A DNA stretch of 64,000 nt from an uncultured archaeon (lineage in GTDB: Archaea; Asgardarchaeota; Thorarchaeia; Thorarchaeales; Thorarchaeaceae). The stretch lies in NCBI GenBank assembly GCA_964473825.1, contig CAYYQL010000004.1, positions 64,001-128,000 on the forward strand, written 5' to 3'. Of this stretch, positions 27,736 through 61,592 are shown piece by piece (the first letter of the stretch is position 1; every line of letters begins with the position of its first letter). Under the pieces are notes generated by a model. That model was not told where the DNA came from, made no database searches, and saw only the letters and a program-made list of their open reading frames with translations. Both the position numbers and the translations under genes were made by a program.

Positions 27736-28881
27736 CTACGTGTACCGGAGATTGGTTCCTGTGTTCAACAGGACTACTTCTTCATCAAAGTCTATGTCGC
27801 CAGCCTCCACAAGATTTCGGAGTCCTGCTAAGCCAACTGCTGCTTCTGGTCCCATCATAATGCCCTCCATTCTTGCGACCATGACCTGAGTCGGTCGAAT
27901 CTCATTCTCAGCGACAGCGACGGCGGAACCACCCGATCGCCTTATGGCACTCAGTATCAGTCTTCCGGCAAATGGGTTTGGAACACGAAGACCCAATGCT
28001 TCTGTGCGAGGGTTCTTCCAAGGCTCCAGTGTATCCAATCCCTTTTCGATAGATCGAACTATGGGGGCGCAATTCTCAGTCTGTGCGGCATATAACTTGG
28101 GTCGCTCACTCCCAATAGCTCCAATGCCCTCAAGCTCGTCTAGGGCCTTCCATATTCCTATCAAGGCAGTACCTCCACCAGTTGGACAGATTATTGCATC
28201 AGGAACTTCCCAGTTCAACTGCTCAATTATCTCAAATCCTATCGTTTTCTTTCCTTCAACCCGATAGGGTTCTTTTGTTGTGGATAGGTCTATCCAGTCT
28301 CCCTTTGTCGCTGTCATCCTCATGGCTGCGTCTGAGATTGTACCTTCGACGCGATGAGTCAACGCTCCGTACATCTCGCAATCCCTGAAGAAGGGCTCCG
28401 GCGTGTCATCTGGCATGAATATGGAAGCCTTTGCCCCCGCTGCAGCACAGTAGGCCGATGTTGATACCGCCGCATTCCCTGCTGAGGGAAGAGCGAAGCT
28501 CCTTGCGCCAAGTTCGAGATGCTTCGATATCGCGCTACAAAGACCACGGTCCTTGAAGGACCCCGTCGGATTCAGAGTTTCATTCTTGATACGGAGCAAT
28601 CGAAGCCCAACTCTCTGTCCAAGCCTTCGAGCAGTCAACATCGGTGTCCAGCCCTCTCCCAGACTCACTACGAATGAGAGTGACTTCACCGGGAGTAATT
28701 GAGAATACCGCCACATGCTATTGATATCTGTCGGGAATCCTCCACATCTGAAGGCATCACGGACTCCACCAAGATTATAGGTCGCCATTAGAGGCGAACC
28801 ACAAATGCAGTGGTCCGCAGGTCTATCTGCCGAGTACTTCGTTGCGCACTCGGGACATTCGAGATGAGTTATGTTTGACAT
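27736..28881 (-). CDS. thrC: Threonine synthase
   Basis: N-terminal CxxC, SLGEGWTP, NPTGSFKDRG (PLP Lys), SAGNA, EGKKT, PTGGG. Confidence 0.9.
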   Translation of the reverse strand: MSNITHLECPECATKYSADRPADHCICGSPLMATYNLGGVRDAFRCGGFPTDINSMWRYSQLLPVKSLSFVVSLGEGWTPMLTARRLGQRVGLRLLRIKNETLNPTGSFKDRGLCSAISKHLELGARSFALPSAGNAAVSTSAYCAAAGAKASIFMPDDTPEPFFRDCEMYGALTHRVEGTISDAAMRMTATKGDWIDLSTTKEPYRVEGKKTIGFEIIEQLNWEVPDAIICPTGGGTALIGIWKALDELEGIGAIGSERPKLYAAQTENCAPIVRSIEKGLDTLEPWKNPRTEALGLRVPNPFAGRLILSAIRRSGGSAVAVAENEIRPTQVMVARMEGIMMGPEAAVGLAGLRNLVEAGDIDFDEEVVLLNTGTNLRYT

Positions 28882-28948
28882 CAAAGAGGGCACTCACATT
28901 TTTACATTCAAGCACAGACTTATTTGTCTATACGATTTCATTTTGAAG

Positions 28949-50026: not shown

Positions 50027-52621
50027 TTGGAAGACACGCATGATATAGATCTCTCAACCCCGAGCACAGCTGAGGCGATAAGTCTCGCATCAGCATCTGT
50101 TTTGGGTTCAACCACCCGACGCGGTCACCCAATAGGGACGGCAATCGGCTCAGGGTCGATGATGGAGTCAAACTCTGAAGAGGTGGCTCTCAATGTCATG
50201 CCTGTTGTGTTTTCAGCAAGGGATAGTCTGTTACATGCTGAGCATCTTGAGCTGCTTGCTGCTGAGTGGTATCTGGAGGGATCTGCTGGTTCGGAATTGC
50301 TTCCTGAAGAACTGGTTATCGCCGGTAGCAGTTTCGGCGGCATTAATACTCATGTATGTGTCCTGTCTTGGGAGAAGGGAGTTGTTGACCCCTTCAAGAT
50401 CGACTCGCATATCACGAATCTCTCGAAGAAAATCGGAGATATTGAACAGGCAATCGAAGCCAATGAACTTGACTATGAGAGGGACGGTCTTCTGGTGCTT
50501 AGGAGATTCTCTGATCGATTCAACAGAGTCCTCTTCGTGGACATGATGGACCGGAGGTTCAAGGGCTCGTGGGATTCGGTTCAGATCAAGCACGAAGGGT
50601 CCGAAGCATATCTTCGTGTTCGTTCTGGATTCTCTGAGGACTTCACTTCGATGCCTCCGAGTATACGGGTACTGGAACGCCAAGACATCGAATTCTTGGC
50701 GTCTGGCATTCCTTGGAACCGGGACGCCGGTTCTCTCTCTCGTATGATATCGACTCCTCTGGGTATTGACACGGTTACAAGGCGCTTACCTGAACTAGGT
50801 CGTTCCATTCTGCGAGAGATGAACGCGTATGCTTACAGTGCAGAGGAACTGGATATCGCTCGCTCTCTGGTAGAGTCGCTCATCGTCCGAGTCGGTAAGG
50901 AGAGAGTCATGTACTCTGACTTTGAAAATGTCTTGGAAGTTGCTAGGCAGATGATAGAAGATTCAAGTGTCATCCTGTCTTTAGTCACGAAGTCTCTCGA
51001 AGAACACATCCAGTCTGGCAAGGTATTGACAGTTCCTCAACACATTGACTCAGTAGGAGAGGCTCTAGATGAGTTGGCAGAGGGTGCTGGAGATGGCGAA
51101 GTGATCAAGAGCTTGCTTGAGCAGCTTGAAAAATCACTACTCAGAACTTTCCCCAAAGAGAACGAAGTGAGAGCTTGGCAGATGCGAAGCTCCATTAGGT
51201 ATTTCCTTACCTATTATCGGAGAGTTAACAGCTATTTCATTAGGGATCTGAAACGATACCTGGTTATCGGTGCGGTGACAGAGGCCTTCATGTTGGCTCT
51301 TGAGGGATTTAGGGATGACCTGGGGGTCCAGGATTATGACAACGTAGACTCCCTGCTATTTACAAAGTTCTTTGTCGAACTAGTTTCCCAGCTTCGGGCA
51401 GTATTTGATAGAGAGGCATTCGAGTCGGGCAAGACGAGTGGATATTCGGAACTCGCAGAGTCTCTCGGGCACAGACTCATGGATGCATTCGAGCAGATTG
51501 AAATCTGGAGTCTCGTGTCCTTTGGCGACTTGGCTGAGATTGTACGGACGCAGATTGTTTCTGAGTACTCAGACTCGGGTTCAGAAGACACACTTGACGA
51601 GGAGGGGAAACGACTGATTCAACGTTTGAACGCCCTCGAACTTGTTATCTCTGAAACACTACCAGATTTTGTTGATCATGTTTCGTCAGCTCCATTCATG
51701 TCTGAGTTCTTGATGAGAGGTCTGAAGAGCGATAGACCTGGCAAGGATAGGTTGATAGAGATTCTTAGAGGCGCAAAGAGCAAACCTGATGAATGGATCC
51801 AAGAAGCTGCAGGATGGGTAGATGCGTTTGCCCCAGACACTCCATATAACTCCGACACCGAGCTACTCGCAGACTTCCTGACCTTCGTGCATAAGAGGTA
51901 TGGAGCTGGCATCTCTGCTGCATCCATGGTGGAAAGAGTTGCTGGTGAGGAGAAAACGCTCGAAGAGGACTTCCAACAACAGCTGCAGTCGTGGCAAGAT
52001 GAATGCGAAAGGATCGAAGCTGAGAATGCTCCCGTTATCGCGAGGAACAAGAAGAGGCTGGAACTGATTGCTCAAGCGCGTTCCAACTTTGAAAATGAAC
52101 AGGCCGAGTATGAGGAGGCGCTTGAGGAGTATGAACAGCACAAAAGGATGGATTACGATGGGGTGTCTGATAGTCCAAAACACCCGGTTACTCCCGAACC
52201 TCTGGATCTCCGAATAGCTAGAATAGAGCGGGAGTACCCAGAAGGAATTCCCAAACCAATTCCAGAGAAGCCTCTCCCTTCTGAGGCTCTGATTGACTGC
52301 AGGCGGCTTCGAGCGCTGCTCAGTGATAGACTGGAGCGGATGGACGAACGACTTCATGCAATGAGTACCATCTTCTCGAAGCGGCTAGAGCAGTTGAAAT
52401 CCGAAGGAACTCGTCGAGTAGAAAATATCAAACTGAGCATCTCTGATGGATTTCTAGACCATCTATTGGATTCGATGATTCGTTCCTTGGGAAAACTCAT
52501 GCCTCGTATTCAGCGAGTCCTGCTTCGTGATCTCGATGATTCTTCGCGGATACATGTGGTCTCATACGACTACGTGGAAGATGAGTTCATTGTGACTATT
52601 GGATACAAGGAGGTCGCTTGA
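50027..52621 (+). CDS. Large hypothetical protein (864 aa; alpha/beta N-terminus, helical core, coiled coil)
   Basis: Long ORF; ggaggt SD before TTG; coiled coil and Pro-rich segment near the C-terminus. Confidence 0.8.
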   Translation: MEDTHDIDLSTPSTAEAISLASASVLGSTTRRGHPIGTAIGSGSMMESNSEEVALNVMPVVFSARDSLLHAEHLELLAAEWYLEGSAGSELLPEELVIAGSSFGGINTHVCVLSWEKGVVDPFKIDSHITNLSKKIGDIEQAIEANELDYERDGLLVLRRFSDRFNRVLFVDMMDRRFKGSWDSVQIKHEGSEAYLRVRSGFSEDFTSMPPSIRVLERQDIEFLASGIPWNRDAGSLSRMISTPLGIDTVTRRLPELGRSILREMNAYAYSAEELDIARSLVESLIVRVGKERVMYSDFENVLEVARQMIEDSSVILSLVTKSLEEHIQSGKVLTVPQHIDSVGEALDELAEGAGDGEVIKSLLEQLEKSLLRTFPKENEVRAWQMRSSIRYFLTYYRRVNSYFIRDLKRYLVIGAVTEAFMLALEGFRDDLGVQDYDNVDSLLFTKFFVELVSQLRAVFDREAFESGKTSGYSELAESLGHRLMDAFEQIEIWSLVSFGDLAEIVRTQIVSEYSDSGSEDTLDEEGKRLIQRLNALELVISETLPDFVDHVSSAPFMSEFLMRGLKSDRPGKDRLIEILRGAKSKPDEWIQEAAGWVDAFAPDTPYNSDTELLADFLTFVHKRYGAGISAASMVERVAGEEKTLEEDFQQQLQSWQDECERIEAENAPVIARNKKRLELIAQARSNFENEQAEYEEALEEYEQHKRMDYDGVSDSPKHPVTPEPLDLRIARIEREYPEGIPKPIPEKPLPSEALIDCRRLRALLSDRLERMDERLHAMSTIFSKRLEQLKSEGTRRVENIKLSISDGFLDHLLDSMIRSLGKLMPRIQRVLLRDLDDSSRIHVVSYDYVEDEFIVTIGYKEVA

Positions 52622-52624
52622 TAG

Positions 52625-55066
52625 ATGTCTAGCACTTGGATACTGAAAACCAAGCAAATGAGCGAGGCAGGTAAGGAGATTATTCTCACAGAGGCGCTAG
52701 CGACTCACATGCGTAGTAACAGGGACCGAGAGCTTCTGTCCAGCATACTCAAGGAGAATAGGCCCCTAGAAGACATAATGTCATTTTTCGCAGCCTTCTA
52801 TCTCTACAACTATCAGGGCCTTCGACTGCTCAGCATGAGTGATGACGAACAACTGACTATTGAGAAGAAGAAAGAGCTCTCGCATGATGAGCGTCGCTAT
52901 CTTGAGATGGAGATTCGTGAGATACTGGAGAATAGGCTGAGAGAAGAGATTGACATCGAGCGACTGATTTCGGAGTTTGTGTTGGAGCTCGTTGATATAC
53001 CGGGTGTGCAGGCACGAGAAGATGAAGCAGCTTCTAAGGTGGTCAGTCTTGTTGAGGGCTATCTTGAGAAGATTCCACACGACTATTCTCCTAACAGTGC
53101 CCTTGATTTCATTCTTGGCATCACAGGTTGGCGAAAGCGTTGGCTGGATGAGCTTTATGCGAAGGCCTCGGGACTGAAGGAATCCTCACTATCTCTCAGG
53201 GATGAATTACTAAGAGAACATGAGGCTGAAGTCGTAGAGACCTCGGTTGTTAGGAGGCTGCTATCATTCATTGCTGGAGGAGAATCCTATTTGAGCGGCC
53301 CTCTGACTGGGGCTGATATTCCTCATGAAATCCTTGTCGAGATTACTCAGGCGTCAATTGACTTTCTGTTTCCTCGGTCCGGTTCTCTGGATCCTATCCG
53401 CTTGGCTCATGGCTCACGGATAGAGATACTTGACTGGCTTGTTGAGGAAGTCGATTCTCTCACTAACCTCAGTGACCTTGAAAAGCGATTGGCTGACAGA
53501 ATAACGGAAGAGATCACCACCAGCATTCCAGATAATCCCCAGTATGCCTTTCCCTTTATCAGTCACCTCGTGTCTGTAGAAGAAGAGATAGTTAGAAGTG
53601 GACTGGCCGCTAAGCGTCTGGTGGATCCGGAAACCCTGCTTGAGGGCCTCAGTTCATTTTCAAGTGACTCTGCTGTAGAAGAAACACCAAGTCAATACAG
53701 CCCGAAGGAGCTCGAGGACATAGAGCGTTCGCTACGAACTCTGGAGAAGCTCGAAGACACACTGGAAAAACCTGTTAAAGGAATGCTTAGAGCACGAGGT
53801 CTTAGAGCTGAAGAGCTTGACAAAGTTGGTATTAACATCTTGGCGAAGAATCCATCCGAACTCATCGCCATCGAATCACAAGTATTGGATGAACTAAGAA
53901 AGAAGATGAGGGTGCCCTCTCATGAAGAATTCCTCGAGATGCTGAAGGCCCGAGAACTCGTTGAGCACGGTGGCCTAGGAGAGATGGGCATCTCTTCTTC
54001 CTCCGACATGACGATACAGAGACAACATGAGGAAGCGGTAGCATCTCTAAGAATGGACCTAGTTTGGCATTTCATGATAGGCACTCTGAAGAACCTCGCA
54101 AGGGTCGTCGAGACCTATCTGAGGTCGAAGCAGGATCTATTACGGAGCAAGGCGCTGCTCTTGAGCATTTATCAAGATGCCGCCACAGAACTTCAATTCT
54201 TGCGAGAGGAGATTCTGATTGACTTACTATCGGAACGTATTCTCGAAATGAAGCAGGTTCATCCACATCTTGATGGGATGATGATACGCTCTTGGATGCA
54301 TGCCCGGCTGTCAAATCAGCACATGTCCGCTGCGAGGGAGGAGCTTGAGAAAACACCGAGCCCGGTCTTTGAGGGAGTGACTGACGAACCCCTGCAGGCC
54401 AGTACATTATCATTCGATAACTATGCCATATCCTTTGACCTGATGCAACGATTCCTAAGACGAGAGCGCAGGGAGAAACTCGCCAAGGAACAGCTTGCAC
54501 TTGAAGCAGAACGAGAGGAGAAGCGACTTCTTGAGAAGAAGAAGAGAGAGATTGATGTACTCTCATTCATCTATACGAAAGCCCATACAGTATTCAAAGC
54601 AACTGGCAGGGTTGGCACCGCAGGTCTGGAGTGGGATGAGAATGATTCGGCAAAATGCTCGAACATGCTTTCTTTCTTCGTGCAGACAAAAAGAGGTCGT
54701 CCAATCTGCCAAGTCTGTGGAAGTACCCCAAAGGATGGGAAGTGTGAAACGCACGGCAAAGGACAGATGAAGACCAGCGATGACATCGATAATCTATCCG
54801 TCTTTGTGATGAGATCTCTCTCAGATATCAAGTCTGGGCTCATCGGGCCTACCGCTGAACCAGTATCATGGAGCGAGGCAAGGTCAATCGTTCAGAGAGA
54901 GATAAGCCGTCTGAAGCGGAAGGGGAAGATCACCTCAAAGATGGATCTCAAACAGCTTATGCTTGGAGAGATAAACCACATCATTGGTCCTGCGATAACC
55001 AGCGTCATAGCAGATTACTTCAATGACTCATTGGGGTATGCTGCCCGAAGCGCCGGCATAGCTTGA
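52625..55066 (+). CDS. Large hypothetical helical protein (813 aa) with coiled coil and CCCH-type zinc site
   Basis: Starts 3 nt after the upstream stop with ggaggt SD; CQVCGSTPKDGKCETHG. Confidence 0.8.
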   Translation: MSSTWILKTKQMSEAGKEIILTEALATHMRSNRDRELLSSILKENRPLEDIMSFFAAFYLYNYQGLRLLSMSDDEQLTIEKKKELSHDERRYLEMEIREILENRLREEIDIERLISEFVLELVDIPGVQAREDEAASKVVSLVEGYLEKIPHDYSPNSALDFILGITGWRKRWLDELYAKASGLKESSLSLRDELLREHEAEVVETSVVRRLLSFIAGGESYLSGPLTGADIPHEILVEITQASIDFLFPRSGSLDPIRLAHGSRIEILDWLVEEVDSLTNLSDLEKRLADRITEEITTSIPDNPQYAFPFISHLVSVEEEIVRSGLAAKRLVDPETLLEGLSSFSSDSAVEETPSQYSPKELEDIERSLRTLEKLEDTLEKPVKGMLRARGLRAEELDKVGINILAKNPSELIAIESQVLDELRKKMRVPSHEEFLEMLKARELVEHGGLGEMGISSSSDMTIQRQHEEAVASLRMDLVWHFMIGTLKNLARVVETYLRSKQDLLRSKALLLSIYQDAATELQFLREEILIDLLSERILEMKQVHPHLDGMMIRSWMHARLSNQHMSAAREELEKTPSPVFEGVTDEPLQASTLSFDNYAISFDLMQRFLRRERREKLAKEQLALEAEREEKRLLEKKKREIDVLSFIYTKAHTVFKATGRVGTAGLEWDENDSAKCSNMLSFFVQTKRGRPICQVCGSTPKDGKCETHGKGQMKTSDDIDNLSVFVMRSLSDIKSGLIGPTAEPVSWSEARSIVQREISRLKRKGKITSKMDLKQLMLGEINHIIGPAITSVIADYFNDSLGYAARSAGIA

Positions 55067-55399: not shown

Positions 55400-55468
55400 G
55401 ACATCACATTGCGAGTGGAAACTTATATACGCCCTCTATCTCCGGAGTGAGTGTTGAGGGAACTCTGA

Positions 55469-56869
55469 ATGGTTTCAAAGTTCAAGCCCAAAGGGGTCAT
55501 GCCTGCGCTGATTACACCCTTCACAAGAGATGGAGACATCATGGAAGATGGGTTCAGAGAGGTAATCGACTACACAATTGAGAAAGGTGCCACCGGGGTT
55601 GTCCCGGCTGGAACCACCGGTGAGTTCATCTACATGCGGACCGAGGAGCGTAAGAAGCTCCTCAAGCTCGCTGTAGAGTATGTGGATGGTCGAGTTCCAG
55701 TCATTGCTGGGACTGGGCAGAATAGCACAAGGGCAACAATAGCGCTCACTCAATATGCCGCCGATATTGGTTGTGATGCTGCCCTTGTTGTTTCTCCGTT
55801 CTATCTCAGGCCTTCTGACAAGGGCTACTATGAACACTACTCCAACCTTGCACGGCAAGGGAATCTGCCCCTGATTCTCTACAATATTCCTCAATGTACT
55901 CTGGGGGAACTCGGCTCAGATCTGGTCTACGATCTGGCTGCCCTAGATAACATTGCGGGGATCAAAGATAGCAGCGGCAATATCGGGAAGACGGTCGAAC
56001 TCATCCAGAAGCTCGAAGGAAAGATTCCCGTACTGATTGGCCATGATGAATGCTTTCTGTCTGCAGTGGCTGCAGGTGCCAGCGCGGCAATACTGGCATC
56101 AGCCAATGTTATCCCTCACATCTGGTTGGATATCATGAAGAAGGTCAATGAAGGTAAGATGCTAGAGGCAATGAGACTTCAACACTCTGTTCAGACCTTT
56201 GCTCGACTTGTCACCAGAAACGGCGGTGCCCCTCCAGCAAAGGCCGCTCTGAAGATGATGGGAATAAACGCCGGGAAATCGAGACTGCCTCTTAATACCG
56301 GCGGGACGCTGACAGTCGAATTAAAGGACGAGATTCGCATGGAGCTTGAGAAACTGGGACTCATCGCCTCACAGGAGCAACAACCCCTGATTGATAATCT
56401 AGATATGGTTTCGCTCTTCAATGAGTTCAACATCTCTCCTGACCTTCTCGACGGTGCAAGATTCGGACAGGCCTCGAATGAACAGGTCAGTGTATCTATC
56501 GCTGCGGGGCCAAAGCAAGGTGATTTGGGTCGCGTGTTTGTGAAGCTGCTTACTCAGGCAAAGATTGGACATGAAGCGCTCTCGGTCATTCTTGAGCCAA
56601 ACCTCTTTGTCAAGCCGAGTAGCATCATGGTTCCGGCCCGGACCATAAGGTCGATGCGCCAGGCTTCTCTTTTCTACGGCCCTGTTCAGTCTGGTGCAGC
56701 CAAAGCAGTATCGGCATACCTCGATGCGGCGAAGATACCAGCTGAAGCATTGAACAGCAGTGTGATGATAATGGCAATGGATGTTGACTTGAACAGCAGA
56801 GATCGAAGAGCTGTGACAGATGCTGCAGAGAATGCGGTTGGAAGAGCATTGGCTGAGGTGTGGAGGTGA
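55469..56869 (+). CDS. DapA-class aldolase fused to a degenerate formaldehyde-activating enzyme (Fae) domain, copy A
   Basis: GTTGE, PFY, YNIP, IKDS; C-terminal GPKQG, HEALSVILEPNLFVKP, FYGPVQSGAAKAV. Confidence 0.88.
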   Translation: MVSKFKPKGVMPALITPFTRDGDIMEDGFREVIDYTIEKGATGVVPAGTTGEFIYMRTEERKKLLKLAVEYVDGRVPVIAGTGQNSTRATIALTQYAADIGCDAALVVSPFYLRPSDKGYYEHYSNLARQGNLPLILYNIPQCTLGELGSDLVYDLAALDNIAGIKDSSGNIGKTVELIQKLEGKIPVLIGHDECFLSAVAAGASAAILASANVIPHIWLDIMKKVNEGKMLEAMRLQHSVQTFARLVTRNGGAPPAKAALKMMGINAGKSRLPLNTGGTLTVELKDEIRMELEKLGLIASQEQQPLIDNLDMVSLFNEFNISPDLLDGARFGQASNEQVSVSIAAGPKQGDLGRVFVKLLTQAKIGHEALSVILEPNLFVKPSSIMVPARTIRSMRQASLFYGPVQSGAAKAVSAYLDAAKIPAEALNSSVMIMAMDVDLNSRDRRAVTDAAENAVGRALAEVWR

Positions 56870-56874
56870 CCAAG

Positions 56875-58350
56875 GTGAGTGACGATTTCCATTTCAAGGG
56901 CGCTTATCCTGCACTGGTCACACCTTTCGATGAGGACGGGGTCAATGAAGAGCAGTATCGAGGTCTCATTGACTATGTCATAAGAGCCGGTGCAACGGGA
57001 ATTGTCCCCTGCGGTACCACTGGAGAGTTCACCAGCATGCGCTTCGAGGAGAAGATGGAGGCCATCCGCATAGCATGTGATGCAGCGAAGGGCCGTGTTC
57101 CTGTACTTGCCGGAACAGGTGCTGCCTACACAAATGATGCCATCAAGCTCACTCGTCGTGCTGCGGAATTTGGTGCCGATGCAGCTCTGGTTGTTTCCCC
57201 ATATTTCCTGAGGCCGTCTAATCGTGAGATATACGAGCACTTTGAGAAGATTGCCAACAACAGTGACATCCCTCTGTTTCTATACAATATTCCTCAAGTA
57301 ACGGGAGTTCCCCTTCACTGGACCCTTGTCGACGGGCTTCGCGAGATCGATGGGGTAGTCGGAATGAAGGACTCTAGCGGAGATCTGGTGAATCTCACAA
57401 CCATCCTCGTCAGAAGACCTGAGGACTTTCAGGTTGTTATTGGTCATGATGAGGTTGCTTTGCCTGCATTAGCTGCAGGATGTGATGGTGCAATCCTGGC
57501 AAGTGCTAACGTGTTCCCCGATAGGTACATCAAGATGCAGGCTGCACTTGCGGAGGGCGACCTCAAAGGTGCCATGATTATCCAACGGAGCATACAGAAG
57601 ACCGTGCGGGTGTTTGTGAACAAGGGCGGGGGTCTTGCGGTGAAAGCAGCTCTCAATATGATGGGCGTTCCGGTCGGCAAAGCTCGGCTTCCCCTTATGG
57701 AAGGCGACTCTCTCTCTTACGAGGACATAGATGAGATTCGTACATGTCTTGAAGATATGCAGCTCATCCAGCGCGGACCGGTACGATTCGTCATGGGTGA
57801 GCGTAGTCTTGTCGCGGAGTCCTATCCAAAAGCAGTGGGGCTAGTGCAGGATGAGGTATCTGATCTGACACTGCTACATGGTGAGGCCTTGGCTGGCAGT
57901 GGTCTGGAGGTCGCTCATGTGGACTTGGTCATGGGAATGAAGAACGGGCCCCTCGAAGTGGCAATTGACAACGCAGGTACTACTGTGGAGGGTTTCCATC
58001 CATCGAATATAATCAAAGGTCTTGAACCCACAACCATTTTCGCTCCGACAGTGACCATCACCAACGAGCGACATAGGAATCTTGTGTACGAGAGTGCCCA
58101 GAAAGGTGTTGCTGATGCCGTCACAAGAACAATCACCGACTGTATCATTCCTGAAGAGCTGGTGCAGGATATTGCAGTTGCTGTGAATGTCTTTGTTCAT
58201 ACGAAGGCCATCAATCCGCGACGTGTGCATATCAACAATTTCCGTGCAGTCAGGTTCGCATTACGCAGAGCCATTGAGGGGAGGCAGAGTGTTGAGGAGA
58301 TCGCTGCAAGGCGTGATTCGGCCCGCCATCCGTTTGCCTATAACCCCTAA
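56875..58350 (+). CDS. DapA-class aldolase fused to a Fae domain, copy B
   Basis: GTTGE, YNIP, MKDS; C-terminal GEALAGSGLEVAHVDL, AQKGVADAV, VFVH, RHPF; GGAGGTGA SD overlaps the copy A stop; ORF open from 56860. Confidence 0.9.
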   Translation: MSDDFHFKGAYPALVTPFDEDGVNEEQYRGLIDYVIRAGATGIVPCGTTGEFTSMRFEEKMEAIRIACDAAKGRVPVLAGTGAAYTNDAIKLTRRAAEFGADAALVVSPYFLRPSNREIYEHFEKIANNSDIPLFLYNIPQVTGVPLHWTLVDGLREIDGVVGMKDSSGDLVNLTTILVRRPEDFQVVIGHDEVALPALAAGCDGAILASANVFPDRYIKMQAALAEGDLKGAMIIQRSIQKTVRVFVNKGGGLAVKAALNMMGVPVGKARLPLMEGDSLSYEDIDEIRTCLEDMQLIQRGPVRFVMGERSLVAESYPKAVGLVQDEVSDLTLLHGEALAGSGLEVAHVDLVMGMKNGPLEVAIDNAGTTVEGFHPSNIIKGLEPTTIFAPTVTITNERHRNLVYESAQKGVADAVTRTITDCIIPEELVQDIAVAVNVFVHTKAINPRRVHINNFRAVRFALRRAIEGRQSVEEIAARRDSARHPFAYNP

Positions 58351-58677: not shown

Positions 58678-58841
58678 TCCTCATTTGTGTCAACTAGGTG
58701 GGTCGTGTTTTCAACTCGTTCCAAGATGCCTGTGCTCTGCTTTCTGACAAATCCCTACTTCATTGCCTTTGGCCTCATAGAGGCCATCCTTTTAGCTCAA
58801 AGAGATTATATGCATTTATACGAATAGTAACACGATGGCCA

Positions 58842-59114
58842 ATGTTCGAAATCATCACCTTTGTGGTAGCGTTTGTAACCTTGCTGTTCCTAGCAGGGAA
58901 GTGCTACGGCCGGGGCCCCTCCTCCGGGGAGGTAAGAATAACGAGGCCTGACCCGAAGAGAGTTGATGGGTTTGGTGGAGTAAGAGGTTATGATTACTCG
59001 TATTCTGGATTCTCGGGCAGAGGATACAGCAGACCTTTTCCAGTTGGTCTTAGGACTGAGCGAGAGCGAACCGACACCCACAAGAACTCCAAGGGCAGGA
59101 ACTCCCGCCGCTAA
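58842..59114 (+). CDS. Small single-TM protein, copy 1
   Basis: MFEIITFVVAFVTLLFLAGKCYG...; tttata about 25 nt upstream; paralog directly downstream. Confidence 0.65.
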   Translation: MFEIITFVVAFVTLLFLAGKCYGRGPSSGEVRITRPDPKRVDGFGGVRGYDYSYSGFSGRGYSRPFPVGLRTERERTDTHKNSKGRNSRR

Positions 59115-59388: not shown

Positions 59389-59665
59389 ATGTTCGAGATG
59401 ATTGGGTTCGGAATCGTCGTCGTCATGCTCCTCTTCCTTAGCAGGGAAGTGCTACGGTTGGGGTCGCTCCTCCGGCGAGGTAAGAATAACGAGGCCTAAC
59501 CCGAAGAAAGTTGATGGATTCGGCTGGACACGAGCTTGTGGTTTCTCCTACGTTGGGGCCAATCCCGATGGCTATCCCAAGCCACTCCCTGTTGGCCTTC
59601 GGGGAGAGCAAGAAAAGACAGATACCTGGAAGGCCTCTGAGCGCAACGATTCGGACCGCCAATGA
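59389..59665 (+). pseudogene. Frameshifted paralog (copy 2) of 58842-59114
   Basis: ttcctagcagggaagtgc in copy 1 vs ttccttagcagggaagtgc in copy 2 (+1 T near 59438); span is 277 nt (3n+1). Confidence 0.65.
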
Positions 59666-60452: not shown

Positions 60453-61592
60453 ATGGAGATGCTCAAGGAATCACGGATCATTTCGCTTGCCCAGTCCCTG
60501 ATTGCGACCAATTCGGAGAGTCCGCCCGGGAGAGAGGCTGAAGTTGCAGCAGTGTTGAGAGAGCACATGGAGTCGCACGGAATTGGATGCAGGTCCGTTG
60601 GCGAAGCAGAACGTCCAAATCTTATCTTCTACTCCCACGACTATGAGATAGGCGATCTCGTCATTCATGGCCATATGGACACAGTTCCGGTTGGGTCTAT
60701 CGAGTCCTGGAAGCACGACCCGTTTGGTGGAGAGATTGTCAACGGTCGGCTCTATGGACGTGGCTCCTGTGATATGAAGGGGCCAGTGGCAGCACTAGCC
60801 GAGTCGATCATACTCTATTCAGAAGAAAGACATGAACGTCCTCTTGTCATGCTTGCTACATCGGATGAGGAGAGCGGCTGTTCAGGAGCCGAGGCTGTTG
60901 CAGCGAGTGGTATCTTGAAGGGCATAAGGTACGGAGTATGTGCGGAACCCACCAGTCTGGATGTGCTGGTAGGTGAAAAGGGGATGCTCTGGACAAAACT
61001 CATCGCTCATGGAAAGTCAGCGCACGGGTCTAGACCTGAAGAGGGAGTAAACGCCATCGACCTCTGCATCAAGTCGCTCCAGCTGGTCAAAGAAACAGAG
61101 TTTCCCTACGAACAGACTGAACTCATGGGCCCGCCCACTCTAAACCTAGGTCTCATCGAGGGTGGTATCAAGATCAATGTTGTCCCTGATAGATGTGAGG
61201 CATCACTTGACATGAGGCTTGTCAAGGGCCAGTCTATAGATACCGTTCTTGAGAATATGCGACTGGTCCTAGATGAGTCGCAATTCGATGGGCGAGTTGA
61301 GCTGGAATACGTGCATGGGAAGGACGCAGTTCTGACACCTTTGGATGCAGAGATTGTCGCTGTCACACTGGATGCTGTTGAAGCAAATACGGGTCACAGA
61401 CCTACTCCCACATCTGCGACCTATGGTACCGACTGCTCGGTGTTGCAGCCCAAGATCGGGATTCTCAATGTCATATGTGGTCCGGGCTCAATTGAGCAGG
61501 CTCACCAGCCGAATGAATACATCCAGATCGAAGAGATGGTTAACTCGGTCAACATATACTTGGAGATTGCACGCCACTTCGCTTCCAGTTGA
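60453..61592 (+). CDS. M20 family metallopeptidase (ArgE/DapE-like)
   Basis: HGHMDTVP, GRGSCDMKG, DEE, AEP, AHGS, INVVP, AHQPNE. Confidence 0.93.
   Translation: MEMLKESRIISLAQSLIATNSESPPGREAEVAAVLREHMESHGIGCRSVGEAERPNLIFYSHDYEIGDLVIHGHMDTVPVGSIESWKHDPFGGEIVNGRLYGRGSCDMKGPVAALAESIILYSEERHERPLVMLATSDEESGCSGAEAVAASGILKGIRYGVCAEPTSLDVLVGEKGMLWTKLIAHGKSAHGSRPEEGVNAIDLCIKSLQLVKETEFPYEQTELMGPPTLNLGLIEGGIKINVVPDRCEASLDMRLVKGQSIDTVLENMRLVLDESQFDGRVELEYVHGKDAVLTPLDAEIVAVTLDAVEANTGHRPTPTSATYGTDCSVLQPKIGILNVICGPGSIEQAHQPNEYIQIEEMVNSVNIYLEIARHFASS

Follow-up and report, generated by a model that had tools for sequence, protein, structure and literature searches.

Two adjacent genes, here called A and B, lie on the forward strand of a 64,000-nucleotide stretch of DNA from an uncultured Thorarchaeaceae archaeon (the window; contig C4, positions 64001-128000, in a genome of 3.27 Mb and 95.7% completeness), and each encodes a DHDPS/NAL-family aldolase barrel fused to a Fae domain. 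Both are labelled DapA in databases, and it is close to certain that they are not DapA and that this label is wrong. Their Fae domains have decayed in complementary ways, and the reading that we favor, with roughly even confidence, is that A and B form one hetero-oligomeric enzyme that converts pyruvate and methylene-tetrahydromethanopterin (methylene-H4MPT) to a 4-hydroxy-2-oxo acid and back, the acid being most likely 4-hydroxy-2-oxobutanoate (HOB) and cleavage the favored direction. Each subunit would contribute a Schiff-base (class I) pyruvate aldolase barrel, and a composite Fae site would form at the A-B interface, with the His/Asp motif and the C-terminal arm coming from B and the ILEPNL loop and GPVQ coming from A. 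Formaldehyde would be handed between the aldolase and Fae sites without release, and in vivo the C4 keto acid would be cleaved to pyruvate and a one-carbon (C1) unit for the H4MPT/Wood-Ljungdahl branch. We infer the hetero-oligomer, its substrate, the channeling, and the direction of the reaction.

The initial annotation, made from the nucleotide sequence, placed two coupled paralogs at 55469-58350, and two same-strand open reading frames (ORFs) were recovered there. Gene A (55469-56869, + strand) encodes a 466-residue fusion, the subunit with the retained loop face of Fae, and gene B (56875-58350, + strand) encodes a 491-residue fusion, the subunit with the retained catalytic His/Asp face. 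The mechanical ORF of B begins at GTG 56860 and specifies 496 residues; the start of B is most likely GTG 56875, because the identical database protein (P0001) has 491 residues. With this start, the 10-nt overlap of the two genes given by the mechanical ORF becomes a 5-nt gap. A and B are the only DHDPS-family genes of the genome and contain its only Fae domains, and its close protein relatives in a database comparison were all labelled Candidatus Thorarchaeota or Promethearchaeota.

Both proteins possess the DHDPS barrel that the initial annotation had recognized (Pfam PF00701; 249.0 bits for A and 248.3 bits for B, cut-off 22.1). The class I, DHDPS/NAL-family aldolase domain of A (residues 7-277; 55487-56299, + strand) contains the motifs GTTGEF, PFYLRP, YNIPQC, IKDSSG with the Schiff-base Lys, and GHDE; the corresponding domain of B (residues 12-284 in the 496-aa frame; 56893-57711, + strand) contains GTTGEF, PYFLRP, YNIPQV, MKDSSG with the Schiff-base Lys, and GHDE. 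The residues to which the initial annotation had drawn attention (GTTGE, YNIPQCT or YNIPQVT, KDS, and GHDE in place of GDD) were all present and were conserved in 17-18 ortholog pairs. The Arg that binds aspartate semialdehyde (ASA) was indeed gone, the Arg138 equivalent being Cys in A and Val in B, whereas solved DapAs read YNVPGRS, YNIPSRT, or YNVPSRT and SGDD at the same places. The replacement of Arg138 and the change from GDD to GHDE were constant in all orthologs examined, and the Lys161, Tyr133, and Thr pair (Thr44/45) equivalents were retained in 17 of 17 A orthologs and 17 of 18 B orthologs. NCBIfam matches to NanA, KdgD, and KDG aldolase were all far below cut-off.

The two subunits differ in their Fae domains in a consistent manner. 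The claim that both proteins end in a Fae domain held for its presence (Pfam PF08714; 85.4 bits for A and 106.8 bits for B, cut-off 27) but not for its completeness, as the domain of A is partial (residues 336-462; 56474-56854, + strand; profile positions 9-135 of 159) and that of B is near full length (residues 341-492; 57880-58335, + strand; profile positions 2-158 of 159). Against the NCBIfam Fae equivalog TIGR03126 (cut-off 118.05), A scored 75.8 and B scored 117.8. Motifs were compared in an alignment of 17 A and 18 B orthologs that also contained one A/B pair from a different Asgard family, three fusions of the single-copy form, and two Fae-Hps proteins of canonical type. The A domain retains G.EAL.vILEPNL.V.PSS and YGPVQSGAA, of which ILEPNL.V.PSS and YGPVQSGAA were invariant among A orthologs, and it is devoid of GEAL..EVAHIDL (reading SVS, with S.S across orthologs), VFVHP, NNF.A.R.A.RRA, and the C-terminal arm. 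The B domain retains HGEAL..EVAHVDL, TVT, VFVH, NNFRA.R.A.RRA, and the C-terminal arm with ARHPF; four residues of the LEPNL loop are deleted, and ESAQ stands in place of GPAQ (E.AQ across orthologs). His353 and Asp355 of B align with the H.D of the AHID motif in the solved Methylorubrum extorquens Fae (1Y5Y), in which we take His22 and Asp24 to be the catalytic residues. The full set of Fae motifs is thus present in neither chain alone and is complete in A and B combined, whereas the single-copy fusions and Fae-Hps keep all of the motifs in one chain. This pattern of loss was constant in all Thorarchaeota pairs and in the additional family's pair (G025), and the retained motifs, including the His/Asp pair, were invariant across the family. 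The two genes had been described as equivalent paralogous enzymes; their Fae domains are instead complementary halves, which, judged from the motifs, should be functional only together.

Phylogeny and gene pairing were in agreement with an ancient division of this kind. In a maximum-likelihood tree, the A-type proteins, from three families, formed one clade (100/99) and the B-type proteins another (99/97), which argues for one old duplication followed by subfunctionalization. The tandem was found in 36 of 37 other Thorarchaeota-family genomes, the two genes were never found separately in complete loci, and the order A then B was kept in 16 Thorarchaeota loci as well as in G025 and G059. Modeling of an A-B Fae-domain heterodimer gave a score of 0.69 compared with 0.00 for the best control; 58 of 80 solved complexes and 2 of 110 mismatched pairs attained this mark. 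The model runs had at least 55% of their contacts in common, and the pLDDT (per-residue model confidence) of the partners was at least 74. In the modeled interface, HGEAL, His353/Asp355, and the arm of B face residues 361-384 of A, a segment that includes ILEPNL and of which residues 374-382 lie in the interface; the predicted orientation brings the retained Fae faces of A and B together. Invariant residues were modestly enriched in this interface for A (odds ratio 2.8, p 0.03), and no such enrichment was found for B.

The H4MPT pathway on which the initial annotation relied was detected in the genome by profile search (Mch, 414 bits; Mtd, 308 bits; Ftr, 171 bits), and the same type of search revealed no Hps above cut-off. 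Because A and B contain the only Fae domains and Hps is missing, the Fae module of this genome appears tied to the aldolase. DapB_C, DapF (diaminopimelate epimerase), archaeal Asd, and Hom were not found in the genome, which at 95.7% completeness cannot prove the absence of a gene; Asd was likewise missing from 14 of 18 related Thorarchaeota-family genomes. The searches of this genome also yielded no canonical ThrB and identified no homoserine kinase, with a single ApgM-like gene being present. PanB was found (387 bits). The window itself encodes an intact threonine synthase, ThrC (27736-28893, - strand; NF006050, 469 bits, cut-off 303), with the pyridoxal phosphate-lysine motif NPTGSFKDRG, in a genome in which Hom, Asd, and canonical ThrB were not detected.

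The choice of HOB follows from the chemistry of the family. Enzymes of the DHDPS/NAL type activate pyruvate as an enamine that is then added to an aldehyde. A small residue in place of the Arg that holds ASA would make the pocket suited to a small aldehyde, and loss of this anchor would leave room only for one that is small and uncharged. A pyruvate enamine, a small aldehyde, and a fused module that handles formaldehyde together lead to HOB as the predicted product.

We assessed the distribution of the fusion and of Hom across 151 Asgard genomes, each at least 85% complete, using a table made by hand. The fusion was present in 75 of the 151 genomes (about half). Hom was found in 12 of the 75 fusion carriers (16%) versus 53 of the 76 non-carriers (70%), counts that describe related genomes and are not a statistical test. 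In the Thorarchaeota-type family (f1) Hom occurred in 2 of 37 genomes, it was found in no genome of families f12, f13, f20, and f25, and further contrasts between the fusion and Hom were seen within families f9 and f22. Other Asgard families contain single-copy aldolase-Fae fusions with an intact Fae domain (185-202 bits), and several Asgard genomes possess both Fae-Hps and aldolase-Fae fusions.

Two genes recurred beside the fusion, one of them also beside Hom. The comparative signal from this one, c2, is stronger than that from the Hom counts. The product of the first, c2 (426-441 aa), is more than 60% identical between Asgard families, and no family of Pfam or NCBIfam matched it. In 21 genomes (f9, f22, f25) the single-copy fusion is immediately preceded by c2. 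In the Fae-less families f5, f21, and f23, c2 is the first gene of an operon that also comprises Hom (431 bits), a PatB-type C-S lyase, and genes resembling those for aspartate aminotransferase and AOR; overall, c2 lies no more than 10 kb from Hom in 20 of the 22 genomes with both. That c2 is found beside either Hom or aldolase-Fae would be expected if the latter two both worked at the homoserine/HOB node, and these gene contexts, together with the contrast between the fusion and Hom, point indirectly to a HOB/homoserine link. The copy of c2 in this genome is located elsewhere (G000:C45:6503-7777 = L039:1501-2823, - strand; further examples at L006:3600-4883, L031-L035, and L040-L045), where it adjoins an energy-coupling factor (ECF) S-component-like gene and a 502-aa ThrC-like/PadR gene. 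A structural model of c2 showed a helical domain and a TIM barrel (pLDDT 88.7). Foldseek matched it to class II fructose-bisphosphate aldolase (E 1e-3, TM 0.3-0.45), and other structure matches were to glutamate mutase E (Z 12.1, root-mean-square deviation 4.4 over 253 residues) and to BKACE and U32 proteins (Z ∼11). The Atlas feature search with c2 returned nothing (0.75). The idea that c2 is the missing homoserine kinase was not supported, the TIM-barrel model having generic matches only; furthermore, ThrB and c2 occur together in three genomes, and ThrB is rare in the phylum anyway.

The second gene, c1, encodes a U32-like protein of 315-339 aa with an Atlas feature score of 0.98 to clusters in which PF01136 is found in 17-23% of members. 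It adjoins the fusion in families f8, f12, f13, f18, and f20, where c2 is missing (L008:3340-4284:+, L005:2628-3593:-, L007:7029-8015:-, L030, L036, L037, and L038). c1 is almost confined to fusion carriers and never co-occurs with c2, and this genome has no c1 homolog. Comparison of c1 with c2 by hhalign gave a probability of 4.5% (E 0.009) and a few common motifs. Other genes next to the fusion include a DUF4147/MOFRL glycerate-kinase-type gene, an ApgM-like mutase, and a TrmB/V4R regulator in G030 (L005:7338-10100) and triosephosphate isomerase after the tandem in G025 (L008:7263-7946); these neighbors may represent a link to lower glycolysis or may be due to chance. More broadly, we entertain as possible, though doubtful, a natural carrier-coupled C1 + C3 <-> C4 route in Asgard archaea, resting in this lineage on an obligate A/B heteromer and operating with c2 or c1, that would replace the route through ASA and Hom.

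Several observations weigh against the proposed A-B enzyme or parts of it. Both proteins exceed the cut-off of the NCBIfam dapA equivalog (TIGR00674; 223 and 239 versus 206), which accounts for the database names: P0001 and more than 100 relatives of 491-497 aa are all called 4-hydroxy-tetrahydrodipicolinate synthase. The best sequence matches are solved DapAs at about 180 bits (the Methanocaldococcus jannaschii-type 2yxg for A, 181 bits; 1xky and 2ehh for B, 179 bits), and on these matches alone a DapA-like reaction could still be assigned to the pair. The Arg138 equivalent is missing, however, DapB_C, DapF, and Asd were not found in the 95.7% complete genome, and lysine synthesis has no use for a Fae domain, such that true DapA activity is the least credible explanation and has almost no weight in our assessment. 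The positions of Tyr106/Tyr107 read FY in A and YF in B; because single-copy forms also vary there (YY, YF, or FY), these positions are uninformative as to which aldolase site works. The Schiff-base Lys is missing from the B aldolase in one genus. In that B ortholog (G011; L019:5787-7232:+), both the Lys (GLSDASG) and the Thr pair (CASLGEF) are lost and its A partner keeps both, which suggests that one aldolase site per A/B pair can be enough. A scheme in which A donates Tyr107 and only the site of B is complete was dropped as undecidable, both because of the variation among single-copy forms and because this genus lost the Lys of B and not that of A. The heterodimer score may mirror the solved Fae homopentamer (1Y5Y) and so reflect likeness rather than binding. 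The negative association of the fusion with Hom is confounded by phylogeny, and 12 genomes contain both genes and about 23 contain neither. In family f9 the fusion is present in 22 of 34 genomes, and the ThrC type of this genome in 4 of 34. Lastly, the fusion and c2 are unlinked in this genome, and the c2 model matches generic TIM barrels only.

The rivals that accept an aldolase-Fae enzyme differ in how the subunits are used, in substrate, and in direction. If A and B were independent homo-oligomeric paralogs, B would be a complete aldolase-Fae and A an aldolase with a dead Fae remnant. This arrangement is compatible with the score of B, which lies just below the equivalog cut-off and spans the whole profile, and with the single-copy fusions, which evidently work alone. 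It is nonetheless very improbable: B is without the LEPNL loop and GPAQ that are kept in canonical Fae, in all single-copy fusions, and in A; a dead remnant would not hold ILEPNL and YGPVQ invariant over 18 genomes; the two genes are never apart in complete loci; and the model pairs the retained Fae faces. The aldolase might alternatively act on other substrates, such as a ketopantoate-like acid, 4-hydroxy-2-oxoglutarate yielding glyoxylate, or a 2-keto-3-deoxy sugar acid, with Fae handling formaldehyde from elsewhere or mainly scaffolding the oligomer. The DHDPS/NAL family does include many pyruvate aldolases with other aldehydes, and half of each Fae domain is degenerate. We consider this explanation unlikely, as PanB is present in this genome and in three of five c1-bearing genomes (on which grounds replacement of PanB was rejected), the invariant retained Fae motifs with their His/Asp pair argue for catalysis and against a scaffold, no other formaldehyde-producing partner such as Hps was found in the genome, and the change of Arg138 to Cys or Val would remove the carboxylate anchor needed by larger acidic aldehydes.

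The same hetero-oligomer could also run in the synthetic direction, with methylene-H4MPT and pyruvate giving HOB, then homoserine, and then the substrate flow to threonine synthase; transamination of HOB would in that case replace the aspartate kinase/Asd/Hom route, and we rate both suggestions as tentative, at clearly less than even chances. ThrC is intact in the window of a genome in which Hom, Asd, and canonical ThrB were not found, and the same type of ThrC was detected in 36 of 37 other genomes of the Thorarchaeota family and in all 7 f12 genomes, families in which Hom was found in 2 of 37 and 0 of 7, respectively. The negative association between the fusion and Hom fits synthesis as well, and PanB offers a precedent in which methylene-pterin donates a hydroxymethyl group to a 2-oxo acid. 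Against synthesis, no homoserine kinase was identified, canonical ThrB being rare (11 of 151 Asgard genomes) and a single ApgM-like gene being present here; moreover, many Asgard archaea may be plain amino-acid auxotrophs. Most f9 fusion carriers are without the ThrC type of the window, which speaks for cleavage, as does the AOR-like gene in the c2 operon that contains Hom, since it fits breakdown better than synthesis. AOR-like enzymes usually oxidize aldehydes. The Fae-Hps precedent, which is one of formaldehyde capture, also speaks for cleavage. The initial annotation had amino-acid catabolism feeding the Wood-Ljungdahl branch; the evidence does not discriminate between this direction and the reverse, and we lean toward cleavage in vivo.

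The sequences around the tandem contain candidate expression signals that were identified by eye. A Shine-Dalgarno-like motif for B (GGAGGTGA, 56862-56869, + strand) lies inside the 3' end of A and overlaps its stop codon (TGA, 56867-56869), with the start of B 6 nt after the motif. A candidate TATA-like box (CTTATATA, 55422-55429, + strand) is located ∼40 nt 5' of the ATG of A, and GAGG at 55456-55459 (+ strand) is a possible ribosome-binding site for this gene. No metabolic operon was found around A and B in Thorarchaeota; the neighborhood consists of conserved synteny only, with two large proteins without family, CutA, and an M20 peptidase as the conserved neighbors. The genes of the two large proteins (50027-52621 and 52625-55066, both + strand; 864 and 813 aa, no Pfam family) directly precede CutA and the A/B pair, an arrangement conserved in 13-15 loci of Thorarchaeota. 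The M20 peptidase/deacylase (ArgE/DapE/LysK-like; 60453-61592, + strand) lies 2 kb 3' of B, a position kept in 12 Thorarchaeota loci. Two small ORFs 3' of B (58698-59114 and 59402-59665, both + strand) have in common the motif LAGKCYG.G.SSGEVRITRP.PK.VDGFG ... P.PVGLR and a match in one relative only (G001); they may have arisen by duplication of a small gene or represent a repeat.

A gene that is carried by about half of 151 Asgard genomes and named DapA in databases has consequences for how these closest archaeal relatives of eukaryotes are understood. As a result of the naming, metabolic reconstructions of Asgard archaea credit a lysine step that is probably lacking. The mislabeling would also hide a connection of the H4MPT/Wood-Ljungdahl C1 pool to central C3/C4 metabolism. 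The initial annotation knew of no characterized DapA-Fae fusion, and our literature search agreed in finding no paper on a DHDPS-Fae fusion; nor did the searchable literature contain a description of a natural carrier-coupled class I HOB aldolase, and the Asgard metabolism papers mentioned Fae-Hps only.

Several known systems resemble A and B in part. The two proteins are like DapA (EC 4.3.3.7; TIGR00674; 1xky, 2ehh, 2yxg, 1dhp) in fold, Schiff-base Lys, the Tyr of YN.P, and the GTTGE threonines, and they differ in having Cys or Val for the Arg that holds the ASA carboxylate, GHDE for GDD, and a C-terminal Fae domain, in a genome where the rest of the diaminopimelate pathway and Asd were not found. 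In design they are like Fae-Hps (NF009833), found in methanogens and many Asgard archaea, where Fae is also fused to a formaldehyde-making or -using aldolase in an H4MPT organism and the same logic applies, formaldehyde being trapped on the carrier. The partner in Fae-Hps is Hps, with the orotidine monophosphate-decarboxylase fold, whereas A and B have a DHDPS/NAL-family class I pyruvate aldolase in its place; Fae is N-terminal there and C-terminal in A and B; and in this lineage the Fae function would be split over two polypeptides. Consistent with these differences, NF009833 matched A and B with 68 and 93 bits (cut-off 274), and the match was confined to the Fae part.

The proposed reaction has its nearest counterparts in RhmA and PanB, which likewise join a 2-oxo acid and a formaldehyde equivalent to give a 4-hydroxy-2-oxo acid, PanB taking its C1 unit from methylene-pterin. 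Both differ from A and B in being metal-dependent class II enzymes of other folds, and RhmA uses free formaldehyde. Joining pyruvate and formaldehyde to HOB and then transaminating HOB to homoserine is known chemistry that forms part of an engineered homoserine cycle; its HOB aldolase step relies on promiscuous Escherichia coli RhmA, and HOB is regarded there as a non-native metabolite (PMC8879981). Should the proposed HOB reaction prove correct, A and B would be the counterpart in nature of a step in formaldehyde assimilation that synthetic biology has improvised with promiscuous enzymes, and the C1 + C3 <-> C4 sequence, so far known only as a segment of that cycle, would occur in nature.

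With respect to Fae itself, B aligns to residues 8-168 of the M. extorquens enzyme (EC 4.2.1.147; 1Y5Y/1Y60), including AH.D and the HPF arm, and A aligns to residues 16-120 only. Each of the two appears to keep one side of the inter-subunit interface, in contrast to M. extorquens Fae, which is reportedly built of five identical, complete subunits that bind the carrier between adjacent chains. We propose that the ring of five equal subunits has been replaced here by A-B pairs with one composite site each, and the A/B pair would represent a clear example from nature of an active site at a subunit interface whose parts have been distributed over two duplicated genes.

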